Of a DNA stretch of 64,000 nucleotides, positions 3,092-32,690 are shown piece after piece. Source of the DNA: a bacterium (GTDB lineage: Bacteria > Auribacterota > UBA3054); the NCBI GenBank assembly GCA_017649705.1, contig JAGCGH010000081.1, positions 206-64,205 of the forward strand. The letters are read 5' to 3'. Positions within the stretch are counted from its first letter, which is position 1, and every line of letters starts with the position of its first letter. Below the pieces are notes generated by a model. It searched no databases and was not told the DNA's origin. It saw nothing but the letters and a program-made list of their open reading frames with translations. The position numbers and the translations under genes are program-made.

Positions 3092-5647
3092 TCACGGCTT
3101 TTTGAGCTCCTCCCCGCCGACTTCCAGAGTCCAGTTGCCGCCGGGCACGAGCTGAGGCTTGTAGGTTCCCTTGACCAGCTTGTATTCCGCGGTGCAGCCG
3201 GTGTCCTTGTCCTTCAGGGTGAAACTCTCCGTCTGCCCTCCCGGGAAGAAGCGCCACACCTCTTTTCCGTTCAGGTAATAAAGCGACTCGTCCGTCTTGG
3301 CCAGGCCGCAGCCGGCGGCCAGGAGGCGCCCGGTCTTGTCCTCCGGATCAAGGCCTGCGCTGCGGGATACCGCGGCGGCCTTCGCCACTTCCTCCCTGGA
3401 GGCCGTGGCGGCGGAGATGTTGAGCTTGCCGGAGGCGCCCGCGGGCAGAGTCACCTTAACGGAGCGTTCCTCGGGGGAATAGACAGCTTTCGCCGGCTCG
3501 CCGTTGAAAAGAGCGCCGTCAAAGGAGGAGACGTTGCGCAGAGTCACGGTGTAGTCCCTGTCCTTTATCTGCCCCTCGAAGCTCCCCTCCTGATCTCCAA
3601 TGAACAAGAAATGGCTGTTTAATTGGCGAATGTACCTGAATTTTGTGAGGGAGGAAACGCCTTCCTTGTAAGCCGGGGTGATGCCGTCGTCCTCGTAGAG
3701 GGTAAAGGAGCCCTCGCCGTCGCCGTCGGTGGGAAAGATCATGACGTCCACGGTCTTGGGCAGATCCGCCATCCTCTTCCCCATCCTGCCCAATGGGAGC
3801 GGCGTCCCCTTCTTGACGAAGAGCGGCATCTCGTAGATGTCGCAGGGCGCCAGGACGTAGCCCTTGTCATAGCTTTCGCCGGTGAAATAATTGGCCCATC
3901 CGTCGGAGGGGAAGTAAACTACCTGGGCCGCCAGGTAATTCTTTCCCCTGCCCGTTTCCGTCACGGGAGCCGCGAGCATGTGGTCCCCGAAGAGATATTC
4001 CTGGGGATTGACGTAGGAATTCTCATCGTTGGGGAAATCGTAGTAAAGGGGCCTCATGAAAGGCAGGCATTCCTCGTAGAGTTTGTGCGCGCCAGTATAT
4101 ATATAAGGAAGGAGCTGGGAGCGCAGAACGTAGCTGCTCTTGAGGGAAGGCTCGAACTCATCCCACACCCAGGGACGCCTATCCAGATTCTTGTCGTAAG
4201 TGGAATGGAGCCTGAAGGAAGCCGTGGTGGCGCCGAACTGCAGCCAGCGGGCGTAAAGCTCGGGGTCCCTCCTGCCGTAATGCCCGCCCATGTCGTGCGA
4301 CCAGTAGCAGCAGCCGGCGTTGGCGGAACAGGAATTCATGGCGATCTCGAAAGCCAGCATCGGCCAGCAGCAGCCGGTGTCGCCGGAGAACTCGATGGGG
4401 TACTTCTGGTCGCCAAGACCTCCCCAGCGCGCAAACGAGAGCCCTCGCTGATCCGGCCTGTCGGTGTGCTCGTAGTAGAGCTTGTTCAGCCAAGTCCAGT
4501 GTTTCAGGCCGGGAACGCCGGAAACATGAGGATACAGGCTGTCCTGCTGCCAGTCCACCCACCAGACGTCCACGCCTTCCTTTTCAAGAGGTTCGTGGGC
4601 GTATTTGAAATAGGCGTCCATATATTTCTTGCTGCCGGCCTGGAAAGGAATGATGCGGCCGCCCTCTGTGCTCTCGCCTATGGCTTTCATGAAATCCTCG
4701 TAGCACCATTCGTGGTCCCTTATGCCGTCAGCGGGGTGGACGTTCAGGGCGATATGCAGCCCCTGGTCTCTCATCTCTTTCAAAAGCGCCTCGGCGTCCG
4801 GCAGCAGTTCCCGGTTCCAGGTCCAGCCCGTCCAGCCCCTGTCTCCCCAGAATCCCTTGGTGGCTTTCCTGTCGTGCCACTCCATGTCCCAGACCAGGAC
4901 GTCCAGGGGATAGCCTTTCTCCTCGTATTCCTTTACCAGGTTGCGGTAATCGTCGGAAGTGTAGGAGTACCAGCGGGAGTACCAGGAGCCGAAGGTGAAC
5001 CTGGGCGGCATGGGGATCTTTCCGGAAACGTCGCAGAGTTCCTTAAGCCCTTTCTGATAATCCTTGCCGTAGCAGAAGAGATAAATGTCCATGTCCCCTT
5101 CCTTAACGTCCCTCACCTTCGCCTCGCCGTCCACGACGAGCGGTTTGCCGGTATCGTCATAAAGGAACCAGCCTTCCCTGGTCATGAGTCCGTCGTCCAG
5201 TTCGAAAGCCTCCCACTTTGAATCCAAGGTTCCGGTGCTGCCGCCCAAGTTGTGCAGCTTGGGCTTGCCGTAGGAGGGCCGCCAGACCATGATGCCCGGC
5301 ATGTGCACGCCGAAATTATGATCGGGCATCGAGCCTTCCGGGTGATTCCTGTCCACGAAAAAGATGATGCTCTTCGTCTTGACGAGGATCTGGTCGTCCT
5401 TGTCCTCGATCTCGAAATCGAAGAAATCCATTTCCCTCTTCTGGGCGAAAAGCGTCTGCTCGTCGTGGAAGGTCCCCCTTTCTATCCTGACGCAGCCTTC
5501 GTCGATGATGGAAAGCCTGAGCAGCCCGTCGATGATCATGGGGTTGGCTTTCACAGTCGGGGTGACAGCCGTGGACACCTCGGTCCCCTTCACTCCGGCG
5601 AACAGGGTCGCGCAGGCAAGGAAGGCTAGCAGAAAAACGTTTAGCAT
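3092..5647 (-). CDS. Glycoside hydrolase family 31-like glycosidase, secreted
   Basis: 851 aa with a signal peptide. It has the GH31-type nucleophile region DVLVWDMEWHD and a second acidic motif WSHDMGGHYG. The C-terminal ~120 aa non-catalytic tail is shared with the neighbour. Confidence 0.65.
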   Translation of the reverse strand: MLNVFLLAFLACATLFAGVKGTEVSTAVTPTVKANPMIIDGLLRLSIIDEGCVRIERGTFHDEQTLFAQKREMDFFDFEIEDKDDQILVKTKSIIFFVDRNHPEGSMPDHNFGVHMPGIMVWRPSYGKPKLHNLGGSTGTLDSKWEAFELDDGLMTREGWFLYDDTGKPLVVDGEAKVRDVKEGDMDIYLFCYGKDYQKGLKELCDVSGKIPMPPRFTFGSWYSRWYSYTSDDYRNLVKEYEEKGYPLDVLVWDMEWHDRKATKGFWGDRGWTGWTWNRELLPDAEALLKEMRDQGLHIALNVHPADGIRDHEWCYEDFMKAIGESTEGGRIIPFQAGSKKYMDAYFKYAHEPLEKEGVDVWWVDWQQDSLYPHVSGVPGLKHWTWLNKLYYEHTDRPDQRGLSFARWGGLGDQKYPIEFSGDTGCCWPMLAFEIAMNSCSANAGCCYWSHDMGGHYGRRDPELYARWLQFGATTASFRLHSTYDKNLDRRPWVWDEFEPSLKSSYVLRSQLLPYIYTGAHKLYEECLPFMRPLYYDFPNDENSYVNPQEYLFGDHMLAAPVTETGRGKNYLAAQVVYFPSDGWANYFTGESYDKGYVLAPCDIYEMPLFVKKGTPLPLGRMGKRMADLPKTVDVMIFPTDGDGEGSFTLYEDDGITPAYKEGVSSLTKFRYIRQLNSHFLFIGDQEGSFEGQIKDRDYTVTLRNVSSFDGALFNGEPAKAVYSPEERSVKVTLPAGASGKLNISAATASREEVAKAAAVSRSAGLDPEDKTGRLLAAGCGLAKTDESLYYLNGKEVWRFFPGGQTESFTLKDKDTGCTAEYKLVKGTYKPQLVPGGNWTLEVGGEELKKP

Positions 5648-5659
5648 ATGTATCTCCTT

Positions 5660-8245
5660 TTAGTATTTTAATTCAAGATCGGAAAAACGCACCTTCATTT
5701 CTTTGCCCTTGTCCGGCGGAGGCAGGACGACAGGATTTGCGCTGCCGGCTTTGAAGTTCAGCGTAACTGTGTCATCGCTCCCCTCTTTCGTTACGACAGC
5801 TTCTTCAACTACGCCGCCTGGGAAGAAGCGGTAAACGTCCCTGCCCCTGTAGCCGTAGGCGCTCTCGCTGGTTTTGCCCAAGCCGCAGCCGGCGACGAGG
5901 AGTTTACCCTCCTTGTCGTCCTCGTCAAGCAGAGCCTGGCGTCTTTTGGTCTCCGCGGCGGCGATATCCTTGGGTTCGGCCGTGGAAGCTTCTATCACAA
6001 GGTCTCCCGGCAGCGTGTCGGCAAGGGCTACGGTAAGCGTGCGCTTTTCGGGGTCGAATTCCGCCTGAACGTCCTGATCCTGGAACTTCACCGCCGTATA
6101 GGAGGCCACGTTGCGCAGTACGACCTTAACGGGGCGCGCGGAATATTTCCCCTCGAAGTCGCCCTTCGTTTCCCCTATAGTTATGAAATGCGTGCAGCCT
6201 TCGCGCTGGTATGAGAAGGGCGTGCGGGCGCATTTGCCTTCCTGATAGGCTTTGCTGAGCCCGTCGTCCTCGTAAAGCTCGCTCTCCCCTGTACCGTCGT
6301 CTTCGGTCGGGAAGATCATTACCGTCAGTTCTTTGGGCAGATCGGCCATTCTTTTCCCGGTCTGGCCCAGGACCAGAGGATAGCCTTTTTTCACAAAGAG
6401 CGGGAATTCGTAGAGGTCGGCGCTGACCAGGGAAAAGCCTTTGTCATAACTTTCGCCCGTAAAATATTGCGCCCAGCCGTCCGAGGGAAAATAAACGACC
6501 TTCGTAGAGACAAACGATTTTCCCCTGCCGTGCTCGGCTATAGGCGCCGCCAGCATGCCGTCGCCCAGGAGGAATTCCTGCGGTGTTACGTAAGCCTGCT
6601 CGTCCTCCGGGAAATCATAATAAAGAGGTCTCATGAAAGGCAGCGACTCTCTGTAAAGCTTTTCCGCCGCGGTGTAGATGTACGGCATAAGGACGGACCT
6701 CAGGTCGAAACTGCCCCGCGCCGACTTCTGGGCAAAGTCCTGCCAGAACCAGGGGCGCTTGTCAATGTTGCCGCAGGAATGGAGCCGGAAGACCGCCGAA
6801 ATGGCGCCGAACTGCAGCCAGCGGGCGTAGATCTCTCCATCTTCCCCGGCGAAGAAGCCGCCCAGGTCATGCGACCAGTAGCAGCAGCCAGCGTTGGCGG
6901 AAACGGGCGTCATGCAGATCTGGAACTGCAGCTCCTCCCAAGTGCCGCCGGTATCACCGGAAAATTCCACGGGATGCTTCTGGTCGCCAAGGCCTCCCCA
7001 GCGCGCCAGCGACAAGCCTCTTCTTTCCGGCCTGTCGGTGTATTCGTAATAAAGCTTGTTTAGCCAGGACCAGTGGCTCAAACCGGGAACGCCCGTGACG
7101 TACGGCACGAGATAATCCTGCTGCCAGTCCACCCACCAGACGTCCGCGCCCTGGGCTTCCAAGGGATCGTGGGCGTACTTGAAGTAGGCGTCCATGTATT
7201 TTTTGCTGCCGTCCTGGAAGGGAATGATCCTTCCTCCCTCGGTGCTCTCGCCCATGGCCTGCATGAATTCCTCGTAGCAGAAATCGGTGTCGCGGATGCC
7301 GTCGGCGGGATGCACGTTCAGGGCGATGTGCAGTCCCTTTCCCCGCATTTCCTTAAGAAGATCCTCCGCGTCCGGCAAAAGCTCCCTGTTCCAGGTCCAG
7401 CCCGTCCAGCCCAGAGTCCCGCAGTGGCCAAGGCCTTTGTTGCCTTTCCTGTCGTGCCACTCCATATCCCAGACCAGCACATCCAGAGGATACCCTTGCT
7501 CTTCATATCCCTTCACGATATTGCGGTAATCTTCGGAAGTGTACATGGCGTGGCGTGAATACCAGGAACCCATGGCGAACCTGGGCGGCAGGGGTATCTT
7601 TCCCGAAACGTCGCAGAGTTCCTCCAATCCAAGCCTGTAATCTTTGCCGTAGCAGAAAACATACATGTCCTGGCCCAGCGGGCCGTATTCCCTCACCTTT
7701 GGATTTCCGTCCGCCATAACAAGCGCAGTCTTGGTGTCGTCGATGACGCACCAGCCTTCCTTTTTCATGAACCCTTCGTCAAGCTTGCACGCATCCCAGC
7801 TTCCGTCCAGCGTGGCGATGGATCCGCCCAGGTCCTCCAGGTCGGGCACGCCGTTGTCGCCGTGCCAGCAGCCGTAGCCGGGAACGTCCACACCGTAGTT
7901 GCCGCCGTCCATGCGGCCCAAAAAGCGGTGACGGTCCACGAAGAAAATGAGTTTCTTTGTCTTGACGAGGATCTGATCGTCCTTGTCTTCTATCTCAAAA
8001 TCGAAGAAATCCATTTCGCGCTTTTTGGCGAACATGCTGGGTTCGTCGTGGAAGGATCCCTTCTCCACCCTCATGCAGCCTTCGTTCAAGATGGATAGCC
8101 TCAAGACGCCGTCGATGATCATGGGATTGGCTTTCGGCGTGGGCTTGACCGCAGTTGAGACTTCCGTTCCGGCCGGGGTTCCTTCCGCGAAGGACAAAAG
8201 CGAGAAAAAGACCGCCGCAAGGGCGATGACATAAGTTTTTTGCAT
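5660..8245 (-). CDS. Glycoside hydrolase family 31-like glycosidase, tandem paralog
   Basis: 861 aa with a signal peptide. Motifs DVLVWDMEWHDRK and WSHDLGGFFAG. It is co-linear with the upstream paralog, including the C-terminal tail LLVAGCGLGKTSES…RFFPGG. Confidence 0.65.
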   Translation of the reverse strand: MQKTYVIALAAVFFSLLSFAEGTPAGTEVSTAVKPTPKANPMIIDGVLRLSILNEGCMRVEKGSFHDEPSMFAKKREMDFFDFEIEDKDDQILVKTKKLIFFVDRHRFLGRMDGGNYGVDVPGYGCWHGDNGVPDLEDLGGSIATLDGSWDACKLDEGFMKKEGWCVIDDTKTALVMADGNPKVREYGPLGQDMYVFCYGKDYRLGLEELCDVSGKIPLPPRFAMGSWYSRHAMYTSEDYRNIVKGYEEQGYPLDVLVWDMEWHDRKGNKGLGHCGTLGWTGWTWNRELLPDAEDLLKEMRGKGLHIALNVHPADGIRDTDFCYEEFMQAMGESTEGGRIIPFQDGSKKYMDAYFKYAHDPLEAQGADVWWVDWQQDYLVPYVTGVPGLSHWSWLNKLYYEYTDRPERRGLSLARWGGLGDQKHPVEFSGDTGGTWEELQFQICMTPVSANAGCCYWSHDLGGFFAGEDGEIYARWLQFGAISAVFRLHSCGNIDKRPWFWQDFAQKSARGSFDLRSVLMPYIYTAAEKLYRESLPFMRPLYYDFPEDEQAYVTPQEFLLGDGMLAAPIAEHGRGKSFVSTKVVYFPSDGWAQYFTGESYDKGFSLVSADLYEFPLFVKKGYPLVLGQTGKRMADLPKELTVMIFPTEDDGTGESELYEDDGLSKAYQEGKCARTPFSYQREGCTHFITIGETKGDFEGKYSARPVKVVLRNVASYTAVKFQDQDVQAEFDPEKRTLTVALADTLPGDLVIEASTAEPKDIAAAETKRRQALLDEDDKEGKLLVAGCGLGKTSESAYGYRGRDVYRFFPGGVVEEAVVTKEGSDDTVTLNFKAGSANPVVLPPPDKGKEMKVRFSDLELKY

Positions 8246-8508: not shown

Positions 8509-8538
8509 GCGCGCGGGAATTTTTCCCGCGCGTTTTTT
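8509..8538. terminator. Intrinsic terminator-like hairpin flanked by an A-run and a T-run
   Basis: gcgcgcgggaa-ttt-ttcccgcgcg followed by tttttt. It lies immediately downstream (in gene sense) of the duplicated gene-3' remnant, so it is likely the native terminator of the metallopeptidase gene. Confidence 0.45.
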
Positions 8539-8659
8539 ATTCCGCCTCGATGGTGAATTCGAAAAGTTCGCTGGCCCTGATGCCGTCCAGGACGTAGAGC
8601 GCCTTTTTGATCTTCTCCCCTTTCTTGGCGGGAACTTTGTATTCCTGCACTCTTCCGCT
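8537..8659. repeat. Left copy of a 123-bp perfect direct repeat (= last 41 codons plus stop of the gene 13007..15781)
   Basis: 8537-8659 is identical to 13007-13129 (ttattccgcctcgatggtgaattcgaaaagttcgctggccctgatgccgtccaggacgtagagcgcctttttgatcttctcccctttcttggcgggaactttgtattcctgcactcttccgct). Confidence 0.9.
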
Positions 8660-8712
8660 CTTAAATCCGGAAGCATACCAGTTGTTGGCGTCGTGCCAAT
8701 AGTACAAAAGTG
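8537..8712 (-). pseudogene. 3'-terminal gene remnant of the HExxH metallopeptidase (diverged paralogous segment + perfect repeat)
   Basis: Minus-strand translation gives …SFPLLYYWHDANNWYASGFKSGRVQEYKVPAKKGEKIKKALYVLDGIRASELFEFTIEAE*. The intact gene reads …GQPLLYYWHDAGNWYATDFRSGRVQEYKV…. Segment 8660-8712 is only ~70% identical to 13130-13185 and is AT-richer. Stop codons lie upstream of it. Confidence 0.65.
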
Positions 8713-9262
8713 GAAAACTGTATATTGAATTAACTACGCGTATATATCTAGTGTTTTCAGCATGCTAGGAAATGCAATTAAATACCAAAAAGCATAGTTA
8801 TATTGATTTTTCCGGCATCAATTTTAAATCTCTAATGCTAACACATTATATTCATTCCAATCCGTCATTTGACGAAACAATAATAACAGAATAATAACTT
8901 AAAAAGACGTGATAAATTCAAATTTTGTCCATCCATTTTTAAAAGTTGGTCTATAATGAAATGATAGAGTTTCGTTACAATAATAGAAATGCTTAATTCT
9001 TCCCTTAGTCCCCTATTATTAACGGCCTCAAGATTATTGCCTCGGATGAAAACAAACAAGCATTTTGCCATAACCCACCTGAATAATACTTCTCTTTAAT
9101 CTCTTTTGAAGCAACATTCTATCTTTTAGAAATAAAAAAAAGCGCAACGCAGTTATCATGTAAATGCGCCCATATTTTTTCTTTTGCCTATTTCAGCTCC
9201 ACTTAAATTAACTAAGTTCAATTCGTTTTTTAAAAAACAATTAAAAAAATGAAAAGGTTTGA

Positions 9263-10099
9263 TTATTTGATATTGATTTTATCGTAAAAAGGTAAATCGT
9301 TTCTAAAATATAATTTTGAATCTACTCCATAATCGGATTTTTCACAAGCAAAATATCTTAAAGACAATAAATGCTTTTCATACGAATTAGCAAACTCAAC
9401 AATTTTATTAAATAAAATTTGATTAATATTTTTTTTTAGTAAATTCTGATGCTTATCAATATTACCAAAGATTCCATAATAATGTTTAATTGTTGAAAGC
9501 AATCCTTTTTCGTTAATTGAAACGCCACTAAACACCTCATTTTCATCACGATTGTTATCGTAATAATATAAACGTATTTTTCGGCCAGCAAAACATTGCG
9601 TATCTATTTCAACAGCTATCCTTGCGGGAACACCTATATTCTTTGCCGTTTTAAAAATTGACATATTTTTAGGGAAGGCAAATTCAATTAAATATTCTAA
9701 ATATCTGAACGGATTAATACGATTAAAATCGACTTGCGGTTCTAAGCGAAGTGTGAAATCAGAATCTGAAGATTTAAAAGATGGATCAATACTAAAAGGG
9801 CATTCATTATATGAAAATACATGTTTCGCCAATGAATTAGAAAACAAATTTAAATAATAATTGTATATTTCTAACCGTCTTTTTGTTTGCTCATATGGGC
9901 CTAAAGAAATTGGTTCTATTAAATAAACGGCAGTCGATTTTATATAGCCATTTGCTAAAGAAAAACCAATAAATTCAACTTCGTAAATACCAGGAATTTT
10001 GCTAGCCTCAATACGTTTCAAGAGAGAACTAATATCCAACTGATTATCAACAAGATTCATTAAACAATCGTATATTCTTTCTTTATCTTTTATAATCAC
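9263..10099 (-). CDS. Hypothetical protein (278 aa), island-encoded, no recognisable motif
   Basis: Clean ORF with AT-rich codon usage and a K/N/Y/I-rich protein. It lies at the downstream end of the radical-SAM gene string in the same orientation. Confidence 0.45.
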   Translation of the reverse strand: MIIKDKERIYDCLMNLVDNQLDISSLLKRIEASKIPGIYEVEFIGFSLANGYIKSTAVYLIEPISLGPYEQTKRRLEIYNYYLNLFSNSLAKHVFSYNECPFSIDPSFKSSDSDFTLRLEPQVDFNRINPFRYLEYLIEFAFPKNMSIFKTAKNIGVPARIAVEIDTQCFAGRKIRLYYYDNNRDENEVFSGVSINEKGLLSTIKHYYGIFGNIDKHQNLLKKNINQILFNKIVEFANSYEKHLLSLRYFACEKSDYGVDSKLYFRNDLPFYDKINIK

Positions 10100-10179
10100 A
10101 GAAAAACTTCTCCATTAAATTATTCAGATATTGTGATTTTATAACTTTATATTTTGTTCTCAACATTAACTAAAAAGGA

Positions 10180-11364
10180 TTATCTAAAAAGTGCTTGATT
10201 CCCTATAGCCGAGGAAGCATCATCGCATAATGATAAATCTGATAATAGCTTTTCTGCTTCGTCTCTTGATAAATCTGACAAAAAACCTCGTGATAATCCT
10301 AGCAATGAAAGCTTTTGTTCTATATGAGACCAAATTATTTTATTAGTAATACATTCTTCTTCAAACCAACCAAAAAGCTTAGAATGAAGACAACCAGCGA
10401 TACAAAGTGTCCGCCATTTGCACGTGCCACACTTAGAAAAGCAAGGTTCTTTTTCAACTAAAAAGGATATTTTTTTCTTATTTTCAATTACTTGTTCTAC
10501 TGTGTCAGAATACACATTACCTATTGAATATGAATCAGAATCAAAACGACCACAAGGAAGCAATTCGCCATTATGTGCAATACTTAAAAAAGTATCAGAA
10601 CACCTACCATTGATGCTACATAATTTAGAGATGTTCATTAAATAAGCAAGAACTGCCCCTTGAACGGTTTCAACATTTGCAGGGTGCTGATCATTTAACC
10701 AAATATCAAAAAGTTCACAAACCCCATTTGCGTACTGCTCAGCAGTAACTGATTCAGCCATAAAGCAAGTTCCTTTATAGGAAGTCGGAAACATTCTATT
10801 AAGCCTAAACGGGATTCCCAACGCCTTAAACCATTCATAAAGTTCATTTATTCTTCCAACATTGCTGGCTGTCATCATAGTTATAGCCCCTAAATTTAAG
10901 CCAGCTTGCTTTAATGACATTGCTCGTTTTAAAATAATATCAGAAGCATCATCTCCATTTGGGAACAACCGATAATTAGATTGGAAATCCAAAGAAAAAC
11001 CTATTCGTGAACCAAACGACTCTTTAAGAAGCGGTATGAAATCATCTGAAGCCAAAGTTAGATTAGTCTGAATCTGATTTCTAACACCGATAGATAATTC
11101 ATTAAATTTTTTAGTATAATAATTTACACATTCCTTTATAAAGTCCAACCCCATCAAAAGAGGTTCACCACCATGCCAAATCACAGTAACTTCTTTAACA
11201 TTTAACTTACAGCAATAAGACATTATCCAGTCAAAACTTTTTTTTGCCTCGTCAATATTCATCATTCCATCAAAATCGTTTCGATCACGAGCGGCATAAC
11301 AATAACGGCATCTTAAATTGCAACGACTTGTGGGTTTAAAAATTATTGATAATTGATTAGCCAT
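10180..11364 (-). CDS. Radical SAM / SPASM-domain enzyme (anSME-like or peptide-modifying maturase family)
   Basis: CxxxCxxC motif KPTSRCNLRCRYCYA near the N-terminus. The C-terminal SPASM-like cysteine cluster is CSINGRCSD…LPCGRFD…CFSKCGTCKWRTLCIAGCLH. The track ORF starts at 11433; the start MANQLSII (about 11364) is more likely, giving a short overlap with the upstream gene. Confidence 0.8.
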   Translation of the reverse strand: MANQLSIIFKPTSRCNLRCRYCYAARDRNDFDGMMNIDEAKKSFDWIMSYCCKLNVKEVTVIWHGGEPLLMGLDFIKECVNYYTKKFNELSIGVRNQIQTNLTLASDDFIPLLKESFGSRIGFSLDFQSNYRLFPNGDDASDIILKRAMSLKQAGLNLGAITMMTASNVGRINELYEWFKALGIPFRLNRMFPTSYKGTCFMAESVTAEQYANGVCELFDIWLNDQHPANVETVQGAVLAYLMNISKLCSINGRCSDTFLSIAHNGELLPCGRFDSDSYSIGNVYSDTVEQVIENKKKISFLVEKEPCFSKCGTCKWRTLCIAGCLHSKLFGWFEEECITNKIIWSHIEQKLSLLGLSRGFLSDLSRDEAEKLLSDLSLCDDASSAIGNQALFR

Positions 11365-11377
11365 TGTTTTTGTCCAA

Positions 11378-12508
11378 TTATAAAATTTTAGATATTTTCT
11401 TTGAGTAACAATCCTCAAAACTTTCAATTTCATTTAATTGTAGATACTGTTGAACATAAGAAATTGTTTCAAGTGTATATTCACTTCTATAGCCGCAACA
11501 GGACTCGTGACAATTTTTATTAGGTTCACCCCAACACGAACCGGAACAAATATTATTTATATAACTATCACACTCCCTACAAACGTTCAATACTATCTGA
11601 TCATGTTTCCGCTTATAAGCTTCAATAATATCTTGTGGAGCACTAAAATAATAATTTCCTATTGACATATCAAACTTTCGACAATAACTTAATATTGCTC
11701 CATTCCCACAAATAGACAATTTCCAATAAGGTTCATTAACATCCGTACAACAAAACGGACGCTTGAGAAGAATGGAACGAGCTATTGCTGCAAAATTAGT
11801 AAACTTAAAACTTACTTCGCGCTCTCTAGTATATAAATCAAATAAAGCTATTACATAATCATTATATTCGTCCACAGTCAAATATTGTTCAAGCCTTTTT
11901 CCGTCAGGCGAATGTGCACGATTAACACGAAACATATCCACATGTTTACTATACCAATCATAAAGTTTTTGAGGTGGTTGCAAATCATTTTTTATTAGGG
12001 TACTTACAATTCCAACGCGAATATCCTTAGTATGTAAATAGTCTATTGCACGTTCAATATCAATAGCCGCGTTGCGACCATTTACATATTTCCTTGCTAA
12101 CCCATATGGTTCAAATGATCCGCCTATAAATCCATCAAAATATTCTTTGATTAAAAAACAAATCTTTTCGTTAACCAAAGTGAGATTGCTTTGCAACCTA
12201 TTAATAAATTTAATATCTGATCCTTCAAAACATCGTCTTTGCTCATTCAAAGCATTTTCAAGATTTGCTTCTCCATATAGCAACGGCTCACCGCCAAACC
12301 ATGTAAAATCAATAAATTTAATATCTAAAAAGTTACAGTATTTTATTAGCCAGGTATATGCTGCTTTAAAATCAAAAATACTCATATCGCCATAAGATGT
12401 GTCTGATACATAACAATAATCACACCTCATATTACAGCGATGTGTTGGCGATATGAGCACTGTCAATTTATCTGATGACACTATGCCTGAGAAGTCCAAG
12501 AACCGCAA
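11378..12508 (-). CDS. Radical SAM / SPASM-domain enzyme, second tandem copy
   Basis: CxxxCxxC motif ISPTHRCNMRCDYCYV. The C-terminal Cys-rich SPASM-like region is CCTDVNEPYWKLSICGNG…CRECDSYINNICSGSCWGEPNKNCHESCCG. The start is a TTG directly after an in-frame TGA, so the exact start is uncertain. Confidence 0.8.
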   Translation of the reverse strand: MRFLDFSGIVSSDKLTVLISPTHRCNMRCDYCYVSDTSYGDMSIFDFKAAYTWLIKYCNFLDIKFIDFTWFGGEPLLYGEANLENALNEQRRCFEGSDIKFINRLQSNLTLVNEKICFLIKEYFDGFIGGSFEPYGLARKYVNGRNAAIDIERAIDYLHTKDIRVGIVSTLIKNDLQPPQKLYDWYSKHVDMFRVNRAHSPDGKRLEQYLTVDEYNDYVIALFDLYTREREVSFKFTNFAAIARSILLKRPFCCTDVNEPYWKLSICGNGAILSYCRKFDMSIGNYYFSAPQDIIEAYKRKHDQIVLNVCRECDSYINNICSGSCWGEPNKNCHESCCGYRSEYTLETISYVQQYLQLNEIESFEDCYSKKISKIL

Positions 12509-12630
12509 TCAATATATTCTTTATATGAGATTGAAGAACTAGGTTTGGAGACTCTATGAAGAGCTATCCCAATGATTCTTTGTAATGCCGGTATATTTTT
12601 TGCGGCGATAATTACTTCTTTCTTTTCCAT
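12481..12630 (-). CDS. Candidate RiPP precursor peptide (49 aa), not in the ORF track
   Basis: Minus strand: AAAGAGGAG, then 7 nt, then ATG. Translation: MEKKEVIIAAKNIPALQRIIGIALHRVSKPSSSISYKEYIDCGSWTSQA*. It overlaps the first 28 nt of the radical-SAM gene in a different frame. Hand-translated from the sequence. Confidence 0.35.
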   Translation of the reverse strand: MEKKEVIIAAKNIPALQRIIGIALHRVSKPSSSISYKEYIDCGSWTSQA

Positions 12631-13006
12631 TTTAAATCTCCTCTTTGCCCTTTAAATTATTAAATCTCGTGTTTACCAAAGGGCTTGATAAACATCTTCC
12701 TTCCTTTCTATTAATGAAAAACTTTTTCATCAATATAAAAGAAAAAATAAGTTACATATATTATATCAAAAAAAGAAGTTAAAAGGAAATAACCCGTTGA
12801 TTTTTTGAATTGAAATAGGATTAAAATATTATTAGCAAGACATTTATATAGGTAGTCGGGTCTAAAAGCGTACATGTTTTTCGTATATACTTTAAAATTT
12901 AATGTGGATCTTAAAAAATATGATGATTTAAATAATAGTTGTGCTTAAAAGTTAATTGTATATCTGTGTCAACATCTCTTCCTCTTTCACTAATTAGTTT
13001 TCCTAC

Positions 13007-13129
13007 TTATTCCGCCTCGATGGTGAATTCGAAAAGTTCGCTGGCCCTGATGCCGTCCAGGACGTAGAGCGCCTTTTTGATCTTCTCCCCTTTCTTGGCG
13101 GGAACTTTGTATTCCTGCACTCTTCCGCT
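13007..13129. repeat. Right copy of the 123-bp perfect direct repeat (the actual 3' end of the intact gene)
   Basis: Identical to 8537-8659. Confidence 0.9.
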
Positions 13130-15781
13130 GCGGAAGTCCGTGGCGTACCAGTTCCCCGCGTCGTGCCAGTAGTATAGGAGAGGCTGACCTTCCGGATCGT
13201 AGCTCTTCCCGGCGTCCAATTTGACTATCGTTCCGGCCTTGGCCTTGAAATAATTAGTCTCCAGCAAAGCCACGGGCGCCCTGTTGAAATTGCGGCATTC
13301 CTCCGGGATCAGGGTCTCCTTCAAAGCCGGACGCTTTGTCGTCCTAAGCTGCGTCCTTATTTCGTAAACGCCCCGCATCCGATCGCCCGCGAAAAACTGC
13401 TCGTTGAACTCGGACAGGGGCAGCAGATGGAAATCCACGTCATCCGCGGTCTCGATCTTGATCAAAAGCAGCCCTTCCACGTGCCAGACAGAAGGCGTGC
13501 AGGGCGCGTCTTTGGTGGCGTCGTTCTCGTCTGTGGTCATGCCGAAGGGATTCCAAACGTAAGTCCTGCCGTCGAAGCGGTCGGTGTAGACAGAATCCCA
13601 ATTCTTGTCGGTGTCCGTCGGGATGAGATATTTGCCTTCCTTGTCCGTGTAGCCTTTGAATTTGGGAATGTCCGCGAAATATTTGTCCGCGAAAGCGTTT
13701 ATCTTCCCGTGGGAAACGTGGTAAACATAGACCGCCGCGTCCCTCAAAGGCTCGTCATTCACGTCGTAGATCTTCAGTATGTTTTCCGAGATCGGAATGA
13801 ACCTTCCCTGCGTCCCCCAGAAGCGCGGCCCGCGGTAGCCCGAGCAGTAGACGATCTTCCCGGCGTTGGAGCGGTTGATCCACATGTGGCAGCCGCTCAT
13901 CAAGGGCGTGTAGGCCGAGCCGCAGGGCACGTTCTCCGCGGAACTGTACATAATGTCGGATCCGAACTTCGGCATTCTGCTTCCCCCGGCGTAGTATTTC
14001 CCCTCTTTATCCTTCAATAAAACGTTGTGCCACCGGACGGGGTAAGAGTAGACGTCAGGCAGCGCCAGGCAGGTGTGGCCTAATTCGTGCACCACGGAGG
14101 CGTTCAGGGAGGAGAAGTGCGGCGCGCTGGCCTGATGCGAGGCGCGGTCGTTGGGATTGTCCGTTATGGGGAAGCCGCCGTCGCGGTATTCCTCCATTTT
14201 GTTGTAAACGTTGTCCTTGTCCTTTTCCCAATAATGGTAAACAAGATTGTCGATCCTGTACTTCTCCTTGATGCCATCCGGGCAGATATCGGGATACTTG
14301 GTGTCCAGAAGCAGCGCGTCAAGTTTCAGCTTGTGCCCCGCCACCCAGTCGAACATGGAGAAAGACCCCACGCAGTTCATTTTCCTTTCCCGGAAATAAT
14401 TCGTCGTGACCATGGGCGAAAAAGCGAACCACAGGGGCCTCGCGTCGCACCACTCGCTGACCTTGTTGTTCACCAAACACAAGTCGTCATCCAGCTTGAC
14501 CTCGGCGTTCATCAGCAAACTTTCTTTGGGGAAAGTCCAGATGAAACTGTATTTCCTGATCTGCTGGGGCAGGAAAGGTTCCAGCTCCACCACCCTTTTG
14601 CAAACGGGGGCCTTTTCGTCCCCCACCCAGAAGCGCAGCTTCAGTCCTGCGGGAGAAGTAATGGGGCCGTAGTTGGCCACGTGCACCACGGAGGTCACCT
14701 GGTCCCCCGGCGCGATCTTGGTTTTCAGATCCTTGTAGCTGTAGCGTGGCAAGAGTTCTATGAACTGCACCGTCATGTCAGGCTTTTCCGGCGAGATCAC
14801 TTCCGTCGCGAACTCCGCCTCCTTCCCGCGGTAGGAGGCCTTCACCTTGACCTTCCCTTCCGCAAGCCCCTTTATGGCCGCCGGGATCTTTTCATCCGGA
14901 GCGGCGCACCCGTTGTCCGTCGACCACTGGATGAAAGGCTTGGCGTCGAAATACGACCAGTTGCCGTAGGCGTTCATCTCGTCCGTCACCATTTCGAATT
15001 TGCCGTTCCTCTTCGCCCTTAAACCAAATTTCTTCGAATATCCCAAAAGTATCCTTTTGTCCGCGTGGATCCCCCAGGGCTCAGGCGTGATCTCGATCTC
15101 CTCAGCAGGGAAGGTCCTGAAGTATTCGGTGTAAACGGCTTTCAAAAGCGCGCCGTTATCCAAAGTCGAACGCCTGCCCAGTTTTTCGTTCCTGAAAACA
15201 AGATCCTTCATTTCGCCGTTATCATGATGGAATTCAATGCTCCCGGGTATCTCCCCCGGATCGAAGAAAGCGTCCTTGCAGGGCACTTCCCCCCCTATGC
15301 ACTCCTTGTCGAAAAACAGCGGCAGTCCGCAGGGAACGTCCTCGTCGTTCACGAACCAGGAAAAAGCGATGTGGTGCCACTCCCCCGCTTTGAAAGTAAC
15401 CTTGCTTCTGGTGGCAGCTTTTTTCTCCTTGGATACGGAAGCGATCTTCAGAAGACCTTCCTTGGTCTTCGAGAGAACCATCCCGTTCTCCGGTTTGCCC
15501 ACGACCAAGATCAAATGCTCGTTCCCGTCATCCGAAGCAAAATTTGGCTTGAACCAAAACGAGACAAAGCCGAACCTGGGCGAGATCTCCAATCCATCGG
15601 CATAGTCTATGTCGGAAGCGCGCTTAAGATCTTTGTTCCCGTCCAGGGTAGTGTCGCCCGTCCGCACTTCCTGCGCTCCCGGAAGAGGCGCGGAAGAGAA
15701 CGGCCAAAAAGTATAGACCGCAGCATAAAGATTCACTGCCGCCAAAACAGAAACGCAAAGCAAAATTCTCTTCATAAACAT
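13007..15781 (-). CDS. Secreted zinc metallopeptidase-like protein (HExxH)
   Basis: 924 aa with a signal peptide (MFMKRILLCVSVLAAVNLYAAVY). HELGH is present in …SLNASVVHELGHTCLALPDVYSYP…. The family is not assignable from sequence alone. The stop codon at 13007-13009 is the island junction. Confidence 0.55.
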   Translation of the reverse strand: MFMKRILLCVSVLAAVNLYAAVYTFWPFSSAPLPGAQEVRTGDTTLDGNKDLKRASDIDYADGLEISPRFGFVSFWFKPNFASDDGNEHLILVVGKPENGMVLSKTKEGLLKIASVSKEKKAATRSKVTFKAGEWHHIAFSWFVNDEDVPCGLPLFFDKECIGGEVPCKDAFFDPGEIPGSIEFHHDNGEMKDLVFRNEKLGRRSTLDNGALLKAVYTEYFRTFPAEEIEITPEPWGIHADKRILLGYSKKFGLRAKRNGKFEMVTDEMNAYGNWSYFDAKPFIQWSTDNGCAAPDEKIPAAIKGLAEGKVKVKASYRGKEAEFATEVISPEKPDMTVQFIELLPRYSYKDLKTKIAPGDQVTSVVHVANYGPITSPAGLKLRFWVGDEKAPVCKRVVELEPFLPQQIRKYSFIWTFPKESLLMNAEVKLDDDLCLVNNKVSEWCDARPLWFAFSPMVTTNYFRERKMNCVGSFSMFDWVAGHKLKLDALLLDTKYPDICPDGIKEKYRIDNLVYHYWEKDKDNVYNKMEEYRDGGFPITDNPNDRASHQASAPHFSSLNASVVHELGHTCLALPDVYSYPVRWHNVLLKDKEGKYYAGGSRMPKFGSDIMYSSAENVPCGSAYTPLMSGCHMWINRSNAGKIVYCSGYRGPRFWGTQGRFIPISENILKIYDVNDEPLRDAAVYVYHVSHGKINAFADKYFADIPKFKGYTDKEGKYLIPTDTDKNWDSVYTDRFDGRTYVWNPFGMTTDENDATKDAPCTPSVWHVEGLLLIKIETADDVDFHLLPLSEFNEQFFAGDRMRGVYEIRTQLRTTKRPALKETLIPEECRNFNRAPVALLETNYFKAKAGTIVKLDAGKSYDPEGQPLLYYWHDAGNWYATDFRSGRVQEYKVPAKKGEKIKKALYVLDGIRASELFEFTIEAE

Positions 15782-15853
15782 GATTCCCCTTGATTATGAC
15801 TTTATTGTAACAAAATAACGACAATTGCGCACATAAAAGGCGATAGTCTTTGC

Positions 15854-15859
15854 TATAAT
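15854..15859 (+). promoter_or_regulatory. Possible -10 box (TATAAT) 7 nt upstream of the addB-like ATG (short or leaderless 5' end)
   Basis: ttgctataattgaagccATG. No convincing -35 is seen. Confidence 0.25.
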
Positions 15860-15866
15860 TGAAGCC

Positions 15867-18581
15867 ATGATAGAAGTCCTGAAAACCTTGCCTCCCCGCC
15901 GCCAAGTCATAAGAGACCTGGCAGATGAACTCCTGTCCAGACACCGGACCGGAAGGCTCCTGGACTTATCCGAATATACGCTTCTGCTTCCCGGCCAGCG
16001 CGCCGGCAGAAGGTTCCTGGAGATACTATCCGAGATCTGCGCCAAAGAAAAGCTGCTCTTCCTGCCCCCGAAGACTGAGACCGACGTCTCTTTCCTGCGC
16101 GCCGTCGCCAGAGACTTCTCCGGCCCTTCCCTCGCCTCCCCCTTCGAAGTCCGGGACGTCTGGCGGAAAGCCCTCGACGCCGAACGCGGCCGTCTGGAAA
16201 AAGTCTTTGCCTTGAGATCCGAGGGAACGGACATCCCGGAAAGCGTGCTCATAAGCTTCAGCGAGCGTTTAGAGGAACTGAGAAAAGATCTGGCTTTGAA
16301 TCTTGTCAGCTGCCGCAAGGTCAGGGAAGCGCTCGCCGACCTGGCCGGGGAAAGGGAAAGCGAACGCTGGGAGGAATTGGAAGAACTTTTCGCGCGCTAT
16401 CTCGGGGAACTTGAGAAAAGCGGGCTGAAAGACGAGTGCCTATCTCTTGAAGATTGCCTTAATTCACCGCCCGGCGAAAAAAGAAAGTTGTATGTCATCG
16501 GCTACCGCGAAAGGATTCCTCTTCTGGAAGCGCTCTACGAAAGGCCGGACTTCGACGTCAGCGTCGTGGCGGTCGGCGAAGGCTGGTTCGACGAAAAAGG
16601 GCTTCTCAAAAATGACGCTGCCTTCCCTCCCCTGGCCGCCAAGCCTGAGGCGGTGAAGATCTTTGCCGATCCGACGGCGGAGGCGGAAGGAGTCTTCGCG
16701 AAACTTAGAGAGCTTTCCCCCAACGGAGAACTGTCCTGCGGCGACGTGACCATAGCGACCCAGGACGGCGATCTTGTTCCTTTCTTGAAAGAGTTCGGAA
16801 GCGCCGCCAAAGTCCAGATACACGAAGCCTCCGGACGGCCTTTCGCGGAAACGGAAGCAGGCTTGTTCCTGCGATCCCTCGCGGAATTGTTGGAAAAAGC
16901 TGACGTCTTCGCCTACTTGAGGGCGCTGCGCCTGCCCTGCCTGGAACGGGCCGTGACGAAAGGCCATCTCGAGGACTTCCTGCCCGGCTGGCTGGACAGT
17001 CTGGAAAAAACGTTGGGCGAATATCCCAAGGACTGGATGTTCGCCAAGACCGGCAACGAAACGGCGAAACAAGTTTTCGATTGGCTGGAAGCGCTCATCG
17101 CGCCCTGGCGTCAGGAAAAGTCGAAACAAGAATGGCTGTCGGTTTTCAGGGAAACGCTCTTGAAGATTCTGCCCGGCCAAACCCCCGAGGACGCCTCGGC
17201 CTGGGAAAAATTGGCGGAGTACGCCGAAGCCTTGGCTTCCTCGAGAGTCCGGGAAGGGAAAATTACCGGGCTCGCCTTCCTGAAACGGCTCTCCAAAGCC
17301 GCGCGCAATATTCATATCGCTTCCCAAACTGAAACGAACGCCCTTGACCTTACGGGCTGGCTGGAAGTTTTCCTCGACGACTCACCGGTCATAATTATCT
17401 GCGACCTTAACGAAGACATACTCCCGAAGAGAGAAGCCGCCGACCTTTTCCTGCCGGACCAGCTCAAAACGCGGCTGGGCATGACGAATTGCGAAGACAT
17501 AATGAGAAGAGACCGCTATTTTTTGAGGACCCTCGCGGACCCCGCCGCGGAGACCTGCCTCTTCTCCTGCAAGCAGTCACTGAACGGCTTCTTCCGGGAT
17601 CTTTCCCCGCTGCTTTGCGACGAGAGCGAGAGCGTTCGCGACAGGGCCGAATATATCAGGAAGTTCTACTCCGAAAGTTCGGCCGGTGAAAAAAGTCTCT
17701 TTCCTTCTTTCTTCCTGCCCAAGCCCCCGGGGGAAGAACTCAGCCTTCATATCAGGGAAAAGCTGGAGCGAAGCCTCGGGCGCGTCAGCGTGTCAAGGCT
17801 CAACGATTTCCGGGAATGTCCTTTCAAGTTCGCCCTGCGTCAGCTGGGAGTGGATGGAAAAGACAGGATCTACAACGAACTGCCTCCGCTTTTTTTGGGC
17901 AACATCGCCCACGAGGTGATGGAGCTTTTCGCCAAAGCGAAGATCGAAGGCCGCGTGGGCTCCGATCCGGAAGAATGCGAAAAATTTCTGGCCGCATCCC
18001 TGGAATCCGTAAAACGCCGGGAACTGACCGGTTTTCCGCCCGCCCTGGCGGATTTCCAGCTTGATCAGCTAAGCAGAAAATTCGGGCCCTTCTCTTTGGA
18101 GCACTGCCGGCGCGAAGAGGAAGGCTGGCGGATAGTACAGGCGGAGGAGAAGCTGGAAAAGGATATTGACGGGATAGTCCTCACCGGGCGTCTCGACAGG
18201 CTGGATCAGAAAGGCGAAAATGAATTCTGCGTCGTGGACTACAAGACCGGATCAACCGCGAAAAAGCCAAAAGACCTGGAAGAGGATCTGCAGATGAGCT
18301 CCTACGCCGCGCTACTGGAGGAGCGTTACCCTAAATCCTCCTGGCGCTCCTCCTTCGTGAATTTCAGCGGCGAAAAACGGCAGCCCTGTTTCTATCTCGA
18401 GCGGGAGCTTGAAACGCCCATGATCAGGCTGCGGGCCGTGCTGGCGGATATCCGGGAAAGTTCTTTCGGGAACGTTTACGATCCGAAAAACAAAAGCTGC
18501 GGCAAATGTCCCTACCGTTTCTTCTGCGAAATGTCCGCGGAGGAACGCTTCGCTTCCGTGGAGGAACTGCTATGCCGGTGA
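15867..18581 (+). CDS. addB: AddB/RexB-like PD-(D/E)xK nuclease subunit with a C-terminal Fe-S cysteine cluster
   Basis: 904 aa. C-terminal nuclease region with CPFKFALRQL … DYKTGS … CGKCPYRFFCE. Its stop overlaps the start of the downstream helicase-nuclease by 10 nt. Confidence 0.55.
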   Translation: MIEVLKTLPPRRQVIRDLADELLSRHRTGRLLDLSEYTLLLPGQRAGRRFLEILSEICAKEKLLFLPPKTETDVSFLRAVARDFSGPSLASPFEVRDVWRKALDAERGRLEKVFALRSEGTDIPESVLISFSERLEELRKDLALNLVSCRKVREALADLAGERESERWEELEELFARYLGELEKSGLKDECLSLEDCLNSPPGEKRKLYVIGYRERIPLLEALYERPDFDVSVVAVGEGWFDEKGLLKNDAAFPPLAAKPEAVKIFADPTAEAEGVFAKLRELSPNGELSCGDVTIATQDGDLVPFLKEFGSAAKVQIHEASGRPFAETEAGLFLRSLAELLEKADVFAYLRALRLPCLERAVTKGHLEDFLPGWLDSLEKTLGEYPKDWMFAKTGNETAKQVFDWLEALIAPWRQEKSKQEWLSVFRETLLKILPGQTPEDASAWEKLAEYAEALASSRVREGKITGLAFLKRLSKAARNIHIASQTETNALDLTGWLEVFLDDSPVIIICDLNEDILPKREAADLFLPDQLKTRLGMTNCEDIMRRDRYFLRTLADPAAETCLFSCKQSLNGFFRDLSPLLCDESESVRDRAEYIRKFYSESSAGEKSLFPSFFLPKPPGEELSLHIREKLERSLGRVSVSRLNDFRECPFKFALRQLGVDGKDRIYNELPPLFLGNIAHEVMELFAKAKIEGRVGSDPEECEKFLAASLESVKRRELTGFPPALADFQLDQLSRKFGPFSLEHCRREEEGWRIVQAEEKLEKDIDGIVLTGRLDRLDQKGENEFCVVDYKTGSTAKKPKDLEEDLQMSSYAALLEERYPKSSWRSSFVNFSGEKRQPCFYLERELETPMIRLRAVLADIRESSFGNVYDPKNKSCGKCPYRFFCEMSAEERFASVEELLCR

Positions 18582-32300: not shown

Positions 32301-32640
32301 CGGTCTTTTCTCCGTATCCCGCTTTCGTTGTCGGAAGCAAAGTCGGAAACGCCAGATAACTGTCCAGGGAGTTGTAGATCGCCATGGGGATTCCGCCTGA
32401 GATGCTTTGCATGGCAGCGTCATTCATCTGCCCGCTTAAACTAAGCGTGGTCGTTCCTTTGATAAAGCCGCAGGCGTTCACCACTCTTTGCGTAGCGATA
32501 GAACCGGCGAATATCTCTCCGGCCATAGAGAAGATCGTGGCTACGATAAGCAGGATGGATCTTTTCATATATTCTCCCAAAAACTGATTTGGTTTGCTTT
32601 GGCAAAAATTATAACTAGCCTTGTTATAAAATTTTACCAA
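29323..32640 (-). CDS. Large secreted protein with two FGE-sulfatase (SUMF1/DUF323) domains
   Basis: 1105 aa with a signal peptide. Two modules each contain …AYYIGVFETTQKQ…DLPTEAQWE(Y/M)ACRAGTTTALN…YDMHGNV(F/W)EWCLDWY…RV(A/I)RGG(S/G)W…CRSA.R…GFRVV…. Confidence 0.7.
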   Translation of the reverse strand: MVKFYNKASYNFCQSKPNQFLGEYMKRSILLIVATIFSMAGEIFAGSIATQRVVNACGFIKGTTTLSLSGQMNDAAMQSISGGIPMAIYNSLDSYLAFPTLLPTTKAGYGEKTETRNVSVKTKNGKFQWTEKDVTPYFTFVTGKERIRPDKAVLKSKGTIDTSKLAELETKRLTVFDKLCADQSLGYLASLVFSLQPKGKNYKFSCNYNDIQAKVSVNSKGKATAKYTLSPEAAYPAILESEYIFTNKYDYSLEIIGDGDVYSGYCEPDKVEFRVTKNPDKFRYFFYKGTKVTNDFMTLELLEDTEVQAAFGSYDFSLKVVGEGSASAEFIGPDEVEVKVTENKDKFRCFTVNGERCQDSEMTLVLEEDTLVEAVFGNYALNVTISGKGSVSYSFVDSEEVVVTAIPGEEFFKSFEWEGNISYENPLKLTLTKDTELLATFKKAEKEKYIVVDLSGGPEAELYPVSLLDDVPEGGWTEEYKTTKLVLRKIEPGIFTMGSPTDELGRYIDETQHQVTLTNAYYIGVFETTQKQYELITGSDPSYYKGDVRPVENVSYNMIRGKRFGASWPYNYDVDEDSFFGKLRSKTQMNFDLPTEAQWEMACRAGTTTALNSGKDLTNEEQCQNMDEVGRYSYNGGSDNYHAVVGSYLPNACGLYDMHGNVFEWCLDWYQEDLGTDPVTEPVGASSGSCRVARGGSWLKSACYCRSANRAGRNSPSDHLIDGGFRVVLVQNVFSGQKNKKDFEFEIKSGTENTLPVFKVKLFGKLPNGTEKPLAEMGEIEYDGASGIVVGAGLHKLTWISDAAYTNIMDEVELRVEYEDVTEQAAYLVLDTTSNKMRVSSDAPDTTDNKCRTDELWLRRIEPGTFNMGSPEDELGRSNEETQREVTLTKAYYIGVFETTQKQFQNIFGENPSYNTGDMRPVEEVSYNKLRGFAKGFAWPEDHGVDEWSFMGQLRKKAGNVFDLPTEAQWEYACRAGTTTALNDGNNITNTVSDGCLAKLARYYCNRNDGKGGYSEHTTVGSYSPNAWGLYDMHGNVWEWCLDWYGSYAGSETDPRGASSGSSRVIRGGGWGFYPDLCRSATRISFAPDPGVVNLGFGFRVVITQ

Positions 32641-32663
32641 AAAGGCAAATCATCGTGATCGAC

Positions 32664-32690
32664 AATAAAAAAGGCCCGCGACGCGGGCCT
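32664..32690 (-). terminator. Intrinsic terminator for the short FGE-domain gene
   Basis: Minus-strand reading: aggcccgcgtcgcgggcct followed by ttttttatt. Confidence 0.6.

Follow-up and report, generated by a model that had tools for sequence, protein, structure and literature searches.

The stretch of DNA analysed here, called the window below, is 64,000 nt of contig JAGCGH010000081.1 (GenBank assembly GCA_017649705.1, positions 206 to 64,205 of the forward strand) from a bacterium placed in the Auribacterota (UBA3054), and its host belongs to an uncultured ruminant-gut clade represented by RGIG metagenome-assembled genomes (MAGs). In this window, a gene for a metallopeptidase-like protein has an islet of about 4.3 kb between its stop codon and its terminator, and each end of the islet carries a copy of the 3′ end of that gene. 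The features of the insertion site are the following.

13007 to 15781, minus strand: the target gene, for a 924-aa secreted-type HExxH metallopeptidase-like protein with HELGH at residue 565
13130 to 13183, minus strand: X_host, the 54 bp native to the gene immediately 5′ of R1, encoding ...AGNWYATDFRS and 93% identical to related locus L013
13007 to 13129, minus strand: R1, the gene-proximal repeat copy (the TAA and the 40 codons before it), matching the empty-site allele of the conspecific L047 at 100%
8660 to 8713, minus strand: X_D, a 54-bp fragment of a heterologous allele of the peptidase gene, encoding PLLYYWHDANNWYASGFKS
8537 to 8659, minus strand: R2, the displaced repeat copy, after which come the native A-run and terminator
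8509 to 8533, no strand assigned: a GC-rich hairpin immediately after the displaced copy, the native terminator of the peptidase gene

The two repeat copies, 8537–8659 and 13007–13129, are in direct orientation and identical at 123 of 123 positions, as a first-pass annotation made from the letters alone had claimed, and the match goes no further in either direction, with T at 8536 against C at 13006 and C at 8660 against G at 13130. The 123-bp block is the 3′ end of the minus-strand open reading frame (ORF) 13007–15781, and its boundary falls exactly at the stop codon; it was first counted as the last 41 codons plus TAA, but it consists of the final 40 codons plus TAA. The architecture described at that time was right, but the orientation was not: the genes are all on the minus strand, 13007–13129 is the copy inside the gene and 8537–8659 is the displaced one. 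The insertion exactly at the stop codon, with the gene left intact and its 3′ end duplicated, was confirmed, and the peptidase ORF is intact in the island-bearing strain. The native terminator was also correctly said to lie behind the displaced copy, since the hairpin at 8509–8533 directly follows the stop codon in all empty-site loci. A tRNA or other RNA gene was considered as the target and rejected, because the only tRNAs of the window are at 60.8 and 62.0 kb.

The island (8714–13006) has a GC content of 0.309 and its genes have a third-codon-position GC (GC3) of 0.20–0.28, vs a GC content of 0.565 and a GC3 of 0.69–0.79 in the window outside it, so the AT-rich island between GC-rich flanks that had been reported is real in numbers. 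Pfam and NCBIfam searches of the five island ORFs (49, 367/376, 394/417, 278 and 68 aa) found no integrase, recombinase, transposase or replication protein, in agreement with the earlier statement that the island has no integrase or recombinase. A recombinase elsewhere in the window was also considered and rejected, as neither a recombinase nor a transposase was found among the 29 larger window ORFs screened with Pfam. A phage or plasmid origin was rejected because collections of phages and plasmids gave no DNA match and IMG/VR no relative. No other element, integrase-bearing or not, was found at the same site in the 16 related loci described below, which are a small sample, and the pattern of the gene 3′ end had no match in IMG/VR.

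The integrated form was present in four assemblies, one of which was made with k = 141. A 13.5-kb scaffold from the European Nucleotide Archive (L001) spans both junctions with 2 mismatches, and L012, which comes from a different sample, spans the junction from X through R to the terminator and continues into the GH31 gene. A 36-kb MEGAHIT k141 contig (L040) spans both junctions with 9 mismatches in 14.2 kb, and because this k is larger than the 123-bp repeat and the flanking bases differ between the copies, the joining k-mers of L040 come from repeat-spanning reads. A Logan contig made with k = 31 (L002) consists of the island plus exactly 30 nt of each repeat, which is the expected graph break and says nothing either way. 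An assembly duplication, the caution raised in the first-pass annotation, or a chimera was rejected on the basis of the four assemblies with the integrated form, as L001, L012 and the k141 contig all repeat the arrangement of the window. In L012, positions 2538–2636 contain 89 nt unmatched to the window and then 10 N, inside radical-SAM gene 2; this is probably a scaffolding gap, accounting for the 320-aa gene call there.

Empty sites were found at 16 loci (L003–L007; L013–L018, six species representatives; L037–L039 from the Joint Genome Institute (JGI); L047 and L048). All of them read gene, TAA, A-run, hairpin, about 300 bp and GH31, with no island and no second gene end, and two of them are conspecific with the window, so the predicted empty-site alleles with the terminator directly after the gene do exist. 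The conspecific loci L047 and L048 are 99–100% identical to the window from about 15050 to 13007, which is the last 2 kb of the gene; they agree with it at every one of the final 200 nt of the gene and at 98% in GH31, and L048 agrees at 99.7% in addB. Both read X_host, R, TAA, A-run and terminator. Because these conspecifics have an empty site, the insertion appears to be recent and polymorphic within the species, and its unameliorated composition agrees with a recent insertion. Peptidase orthologues with 86–89% identity share the synteny addB–gene–GH31, and more distant homologues were found in Armatimonadota MAGs.

On its island side, the displaced repeat continues into X_D, the nucleotide sequence of which is CCACTTTTGTACTATTGGCACGACGCCAACAACTGGTATGCTTCCGGATTTAAGAGC. 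Homology to the gene begins abruptly at the Pro codon of X_D and is extended in frame, with an in-frame stop 20 codons upstream. Compared with X_host (13130–13183), 12 of the 18 codons differ, 4 of them non-synonymously, and the longest identical run is 11 nt. Over 57 nt, a length that includes 3 non-homologous upstream bases, X_D was 61% identical to the host allele and 82% identical to L003/L015, and over the 54 homologous nt its identity to L003/L015 was 47/54, or 87%. At the amino-acid level X_D is identical to the L003/L015 type, and against L003 there are 7 synonymous and 0 non-synonymous codon differences. The extension of about 55 bp, homologous, AT-richer and preceded by stops, that had been noticed earlier was therefore found again as 54 bp of in-frame homology with an upstream stop, but it represents an L003/L015-type allele and not a low-GC form of the gene. 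Judged by these identities, X_D is evidently an allele from another lineage of the same rumen clade. The possibility that X is an AT-adapted copy that evolved within the element was rejected, because it matches the allele of another lineage and has only synonymous differences from the nearest one.

Both copies of R match the conspecific empty site at 100%, and they were 92–93% identical to L013/L014 and 80% to L003. The X and R types go together in a set of about 40 intact alleles, none of which pairs the X_D type with the host R type. The displaced remnant is therefore chimeric, and it changes from foreign (the island and X) to host (R) precisely where X meets R. X_host and R1 share the L013 affinity, so they form one coherent native segment, and therefore both R copies are host-derived or host-converted. 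A single crossover with a molecule carrying X_D and the donor R predicts one donor-type R, which is absent, so conversion or gap repair is needed. Two simpler origins of this arrangement were considered and rejected. The remnant is not the native 3′ end of a natural mosaic allele, since the combination occurs in 0 of about 40 alleles and the host X and R share the L013 affinity. The island was not brought from a donor by double homologous crossover in the flanks, since R1 keeps the host sequence as far as the TAA, and X_D is on the side of the island opposite to the one that such a transfer would require.

The gene itself is composed of segments with different affinities. addB in the window is 97–99% identical to L007 and the middle of the peptidase gene is 99–100% identical to L007, and the 5′ 0.7 kb of the gene together with the promoter is 92–98% identical to L003. 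The segment 13400–13200 is about 80% identical to every other species, L047/L048 excepted, and the last 180 bp of the gene are L013-like. One tract shares its affinity with X_D.

15100 to 16000, minus strand: a recombination tract of D type (L003-like), about 0.9 kb long, over the 5′ end and promoter of the gene, 92–98% identical to L003

This D-type 5′ tract was found in the island-bearing lineage only, and L047/L048 are 58–86% identical there. Two D-type features thus set the island-bearing lineage apart from L047/L048, the 5′ tract and X_D with the island, and they are circumstantial evidence that DNA of a D-type relative entered here by homologous recombination. Over the larger region 13007–18600, the peptidase gene and addB are mosaics of tracts 92–100% identical to L007-, L003-, L039- and L013-like lineages, with sharp switches between them. 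The locus thus bears witness to very active homologous exchange among these rumen species.

We tentatively favour, at somewhat less than an even chance, a homology-driven Campbell-type capture of the islet through a gene fragment that it carried, with gap repair or gene conversion, and we infer a circular intermediate, RecA-type recombination, and gap repair or conversion as its steps. The islet would have arrived joined to a fragment of about 180 bp (the last 59 codons plus stop) of the peptidase allele of another species from the same rumen clade, and this fragment would have provided the homology arm. The incoming molecule, circular or circularly permuted, would have recombined with the 3′ end of the host gene via the homologous-recombination machinery of the host, and this Campbell-type, ends-in event would have duplicated the homologous segment. 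A break or gap in the arm may then have been repaired from the chromosome, or the copies may later have been homogenised by gene conversion, and either way both 123-bp copies would end up with host sequence. The conversion tract would stop at the TAA, where gene homology ends, and at X, where divergence is too high for it to continue (the run of 11 nt given above being the longest).

This model would explain why a recombinase is missing, why the repeat is long and perfect, why the boundaries are sharp, why the remnant is chimeric and why the surroundings are a mosaic. As is expected of a Campbell-type insertion, the repeats are a segment homologous to the 3′ end of the target (123 bp identical plus 54 bp homeologous), no recombinase was found, and the locus shows mosaic exchange. 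RecA-type recombination in general needs a minimum length of homology that 123 bp exceeds by a wide margin. A published precedent comes from Campylobacter, where cassettes bounded by repeats become circular and are inserted again by homologous recombination; in Campylobacter coli the pcp-mediated circles of cfr(C) and their transfer were shown by PCR and mating (PMC10770853). The cfr(C) cassette resembles the islet in that it is an integrase-free cassette of a few kb between direct repeats of a gene or gene fragment, with a proposed circle containing one copy, and in that insertion can take place wherever homologous sequence exists. However, the islet is known from sequence alone, its repeat is a 3′ fragment of the target gene captured from another species, and its cargo is a cluster for a ribosomally synthesised and post-translationally modified peptide (RiPP).

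Several points weigh against the Campbell-type capture. Neither a circular form nor an islet-carrying donor was seen, and the known copies come only from this one lineage; in addition, a 4.5-kb circle without a replication gene must be captured at once. The D-type arm is only about 80% identical to the host R, with a longest identical run of 22 nt vs L003, so the first recombination would be inefficient unless the R of the true donor was closer to that of the host. A repeat that ends exactly at the stop codon also suits a long-evolved, gene-restoring attP. The recombinase search covered 64 kb of the genome, and one encoded elsewhere is possible. Finally, the 18-nt inverted-repeat-like ends of the island are not explained by the model. 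These ends are as follows.

12986 to 13003, minus strand: inverted-repeat-like motif, left copy, 18 nt (GGAAAACTAATTAGTGAA), 3 nt after the TAA
8712 to 8729, plus strand: inverted-repeat-like motif, right copy (GGAAAACTGTATATTGAA), overlapping the first 2 nt of the gene fragment

The two copies match at 14/18 positions with an 8-nt perfect core, which gave P of about 0.001–0.003 against random island segments in a post hoc test on AT-rich sequence. In a circular form, the motif (core GGAAAACT) would flank the captured gene fragment like a split palindrome. An intact palindrome of the motif was found in no locus; the motif is not in the related cassettes, and elsewhere in the window it has only one match, with a single mismatch. 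The joined island ends fold only weakly (z = −1.9).

A bolder form of the Campbell-type capture, which we consider improbable, makes the islet an autonomous cassette without a recombinase of its own. It would move as a circle of about 4.5 kb with a translatable 3′ fragment of a conserved host gene as its arm, insert into that gene in various species of the clade by host recombination and restore the gene each time, while the arm is rewritten to the sequence of the new host by gap repair; the palindrome-like ends (GGAAAACT...AGTTTTCC) would then mark the place at which the arm was captured.

Among the other explanations, the one that survives best is site-specific integration by a tyrosine or serine recombinase acting in trans or since lost, with exchange inside the 123-bp block, so that the islet would be a satellite-like element, a decayed e14-like element or an element like the cis-mobilisable elements (CIMEs). 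We regard it as unlikely but worth serious weight. It fits the direct repeats at the island ends, the boundary exactly at the stop codon, the reconstituted gene and the displacement of the native 3′ end with its terminator, and the limits of the 64-kb window leave room for a recombinase in trans. The layout is that of icd and icdC: e14 (and phage 21) integrate into E. coli icd and leave the C-terminal pseudogene icdC (PMC13626634, citing Hill et al. 1989), so that, as here, the insertion is at the 3′ end of a protein-coding gene that stays intact, with a C-terminal fragment of it at the far end of the element. However, e14 has an integrase gene of its own and two icd ends that are not the same in sequence, whereas here no recombinase was found in the island or among the screened window ORFs, and the direct repeats at both ends are perfect over 123 bp. 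In the e14 type of insertion the proximal copy is supplied by the element; here both copies are identical and host-type, and only the 54-bp X, which the displaced copy carries on the element side as an extra piece of another lineage's allele, is foreign.

Integrase-less elements that keep attL and attR are likewise a recognised class. CIMEs, for example at the ICESt3 site of Streptococcus thermophilus, are att-flanked elements of a known cognate integrative and conjugative element (ICE) (PMC6323972). The islet is like a CIME in being a small island between direct repeats without integration or transfer genes of its own, where "att" would mean the flanking repeats only. Unlike a CIME, it has a repeat of 123 bp of coding sequence with both copies host-type, and no ICE or other element using the site was found; no cognate element was present in the 16 related loci (including the 3 JGI metagenome matches) or in IMG/VR. 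A recombinase with a fixed crossover also predicts one element-derived R, but X is foreign (61% to host) and both R copies are 100% host-type, so a conversion step would be needed anyway. X_D has only synonymous differences from the nearest allele, which is unexpected for an untranslated attP arm that was carried for a long time. The first-pass annotation had proposed such an attP crossover within a conserved core. Its foreign island, duplicated gene end and restored gene hold good, but both R copies are host-type and no integrase-bearing element was found at the site, so the site-specific attP model is weakened. The palindrome GGAATACAAAGTTCC near the 5′ end of R was tried as a recombinase core and rejected; it is not conserved among alleles and was treated as chance.

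A rather improbable alternative is one-sided homologous recombination with illegitimate joining, or template switching at the hairpin, in which the end carrying X_D and the donor R was anchored at the start of R and the other end was joined after the TAA, duplicating the host R. A single event would in this way explain both host R copies and the foreign X, the clade clearly exchanges DNA by homologous recombination, a strong hairpin directly adjoins the junction, and the mechanism is discussed in the island literature. But an illegitimate junction on the last base of the stop codon would be an unlikely coincidence without strong selection, and to obtain a duplication and not a deletion, the order of the joints must be reversed and two sister copies are required.

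We consider it very unlikely that the islet is a non-autonomous transposon (8712–13003) with inverted-repeat ends and a transposase encoded elsewhere, which landed beside a pre-existing partial gene duplication. The 18-nt motif does lie within 0–3 nt of both boundaries, and its 14/18 match and 8-nt core are rare among random island segments at the P given above, but that test was post hoc in AT-rich sequence. No target-site duplication is present, since GTA on one side and A-CTT on the other are unlike, and there is no transposase in the island or among the screened window ORFs. The motif is likewise missing from the related cassettes, with the one single-mismatch match as its only further occurrence in the window, and the duplicated gene fragment and the chimeric remnant would be left unexplained. 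Least credible of all is an assembly artefact in which a free 4.47-kb circle, or DNA of another organism sharing the 123 bp, was threaded into the contig through the repeat: the extreme composition contrast, the short-read metagenomic nature of all the data and the break of L002 30 nt inside both repeats, where the graph is ambiguous at small k, would suit it, but L040 (k larger than the repeat) and L001 span both junctions and L012 the distal one in different samples and assemblies, and the shared 123 bp plus a clade-specific allele fragment would still need a biological link to the host.

The cargo of the islet is a compact RiPP cluster, consisting of a precursor, two radical-SAM maturases (one with SPASM) and a 278-aa ABBA-fold protein, and all its genes run in the direction of the peptidase gene, on the minus strand. 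The parts of the island are as follows.

12631 to 13006, minus strand: AT-rich leader region, GC 0.25, including an 11-codon ORF at 12660–12695
12481 to 12630, minus strand: 49-aa predicted RiPP precursor with the C-terminal core SY-KEYIDCGSWTSQA
11378 to 12481, minus strand: radical-SAM peptide maturase 1, 367 aa from GTG 12481 (376 aa from TTG 12508 in the ORF list)
10180 to 11364, minus strand: radical-SAM/SPASM peptide maturase 2, 394 aa (417 aa if the start is at 11433)
9263 to 10099, minus strand: 278-aa protein with an ABBA (PT-barrel) prenyltransferase fold, the fold taken from an AlphaFold2 (AF2) model
8714 to 9262, minus strand: AT-rich non-coding tail, GC 0.29, with short ORFs only and no family matches

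We read the 49-aa ORF as a putative RiPP precursor. Its stop overlaps the GTG start of maturase 1 (TAGTG), and in L042, L045 and L046 the same two radical-SAM genes are preceded by a homologue of it, the C-terminus of which does not vary (SY..KEYIDCG[SG]WT.QA). Maturase 1 matched Pfam Radical_SAM, and its best NCBIfam matches were DynA-, anaerobic sulfatase maturase (anSME)- and GrrM-type maturases; maturase 2 matched Pfam Radical_SAM and SPASM and was anSME- and DynA-like in NCBIfam. The CxxxCxxC motifs CNLRCRYC and CNMRCDYC are present in these enzymes. The best NCBIfam matches of the pair, to anSME, DynA and cyclophane-forming maturases, were all far below the equivalog cut-offs, so the two enzymes were not assigned to a named subfamily. 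The pair is about 70% identical at the nucleotide level and 71–76% at the amino-acid level to cassettes in contigs of 40–45% GC, which makes an organism of lower GC the probable ultimate source of the cargo.

The 278-aa protein had no Pfam or NCBIfam match. Its AF2 model (predicted local distance difference test, pLDDT, 83; predicted template modelling score, pTM, 0.83) has five alpha-alpha-beta-beta repeats (five HH-EE units), and a Foldseek search of the PDB with this model returned NphB/Orf2, DMATS1, EpzP and the RiPP prenyltransferases DciF and PirF with probability 1.0, at a TM-score of only 0.45–0.6. The model points to an ABBA prenyltransferase fold. Homologues with 40–43% identity lie inside clusters with multiple radical-SAM and YcaO genes, and a role as a mobility or replication gene was rejected in view of the fold and of these RiPP-cluster homologues. 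Four loci with such homologues (L008–L011) have them next to YcaO and up to four radical-SAM genes and contain Cys-rich precursors, e.g. ...GGSCGSWCSDAHECAPLSEV, in which the CGSW motif is common with the island precursor.

The cluster resembles known RiPP clusters (darobactin DarE, dynobactin DynA and cyclophane-forming maturases) in having a short precursor directly upstream of radical-SAM maturases, one with SPASM, and it resembles the clusters of the RiPP ABBA prenyltransferases (PirF, DciF and the cyanobactin F type) in having an ABBA-fold enzyme as well. It differs from the named RiPP families in that the precursor core KEYIDCG[SG]WT.QA together with two radical-SAM enzymes and a prenyltransferase matched none in the libraries searched. 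A related radical-SAM cassette with 71% identity (L041–L045) lies in contigs of about 0.40 GC with short patches of GC 0.55–0.62; gene order is rearranged between these contigs and the region looks plastic, and in L043 a fragment of an IS200/IS605 Y1 transposase lies between precursor and maturase.

The islet may be transcribed by read-through from the peptidase gene or from its own AT-rich leader, and its transcript would be terminated by the host hairpin; read-through is possible because the islet, oriented like the gene, comes after its stop codon and before its native terminator. In the leader, the 11-codon ORF MFIKPFGKHEI (12660–12695, minus strand) stands behind a strong Shine–Dalgarno-like GGAAGGAAG, about 30 nt upstream of the precursor gene, and could be a leader peptide or chance. 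The peptidase is present in all island-free relatives, so it is not a dedicated RiPP protease, and we treated the adjacency of islet and peptidase as incidental.

Other parts of the window also showed local peculiarities. Downstream of the site, 3092–8245 (minus strand) contains tandem GH31 paralogues of 851 and 861 aa with about 72% nucleotide identity, and the strain differences of L012 and L040 cluster at 7430–7892, inside the first of them. A patch of GC 0.31–0.40 in the 0.57 GC genome lies at 22200–23000, in the membrane-domain part of an ABC-transporter ORF (21514–23580, minus strand); the conspecific L047 aligns with it colinearly and without gaps, so the patch is not private to the strain. 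The region 29323–33659 (minus strand) has a GC of 0.46–0.50 and contains two genes with FGE-sulfatase domains, one of them of 1105 aa.

Small genomic islets that lack an integrase and have a duplicated gene end at their borders are a known sort of element, and the present islet is one of them. Its scar is unusually informative; the RiPP family of its cargo is uncharacterised and recurs in rumen metagenomes. One species is represented by sequences that contain the insert and by others that lack it, and the junctions are exact to the base, so the locus is a clean natural record of the acquisition of a gene cluster. The chimeric scar would record the arrival of the DNA via a sister species, with homologous recombination or conversion, and not only a dedicated integrase, shaping the outcome. 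Island-finding tools that rely on integrases would miss such islets, and the RiPP family could be expressed heterologously.

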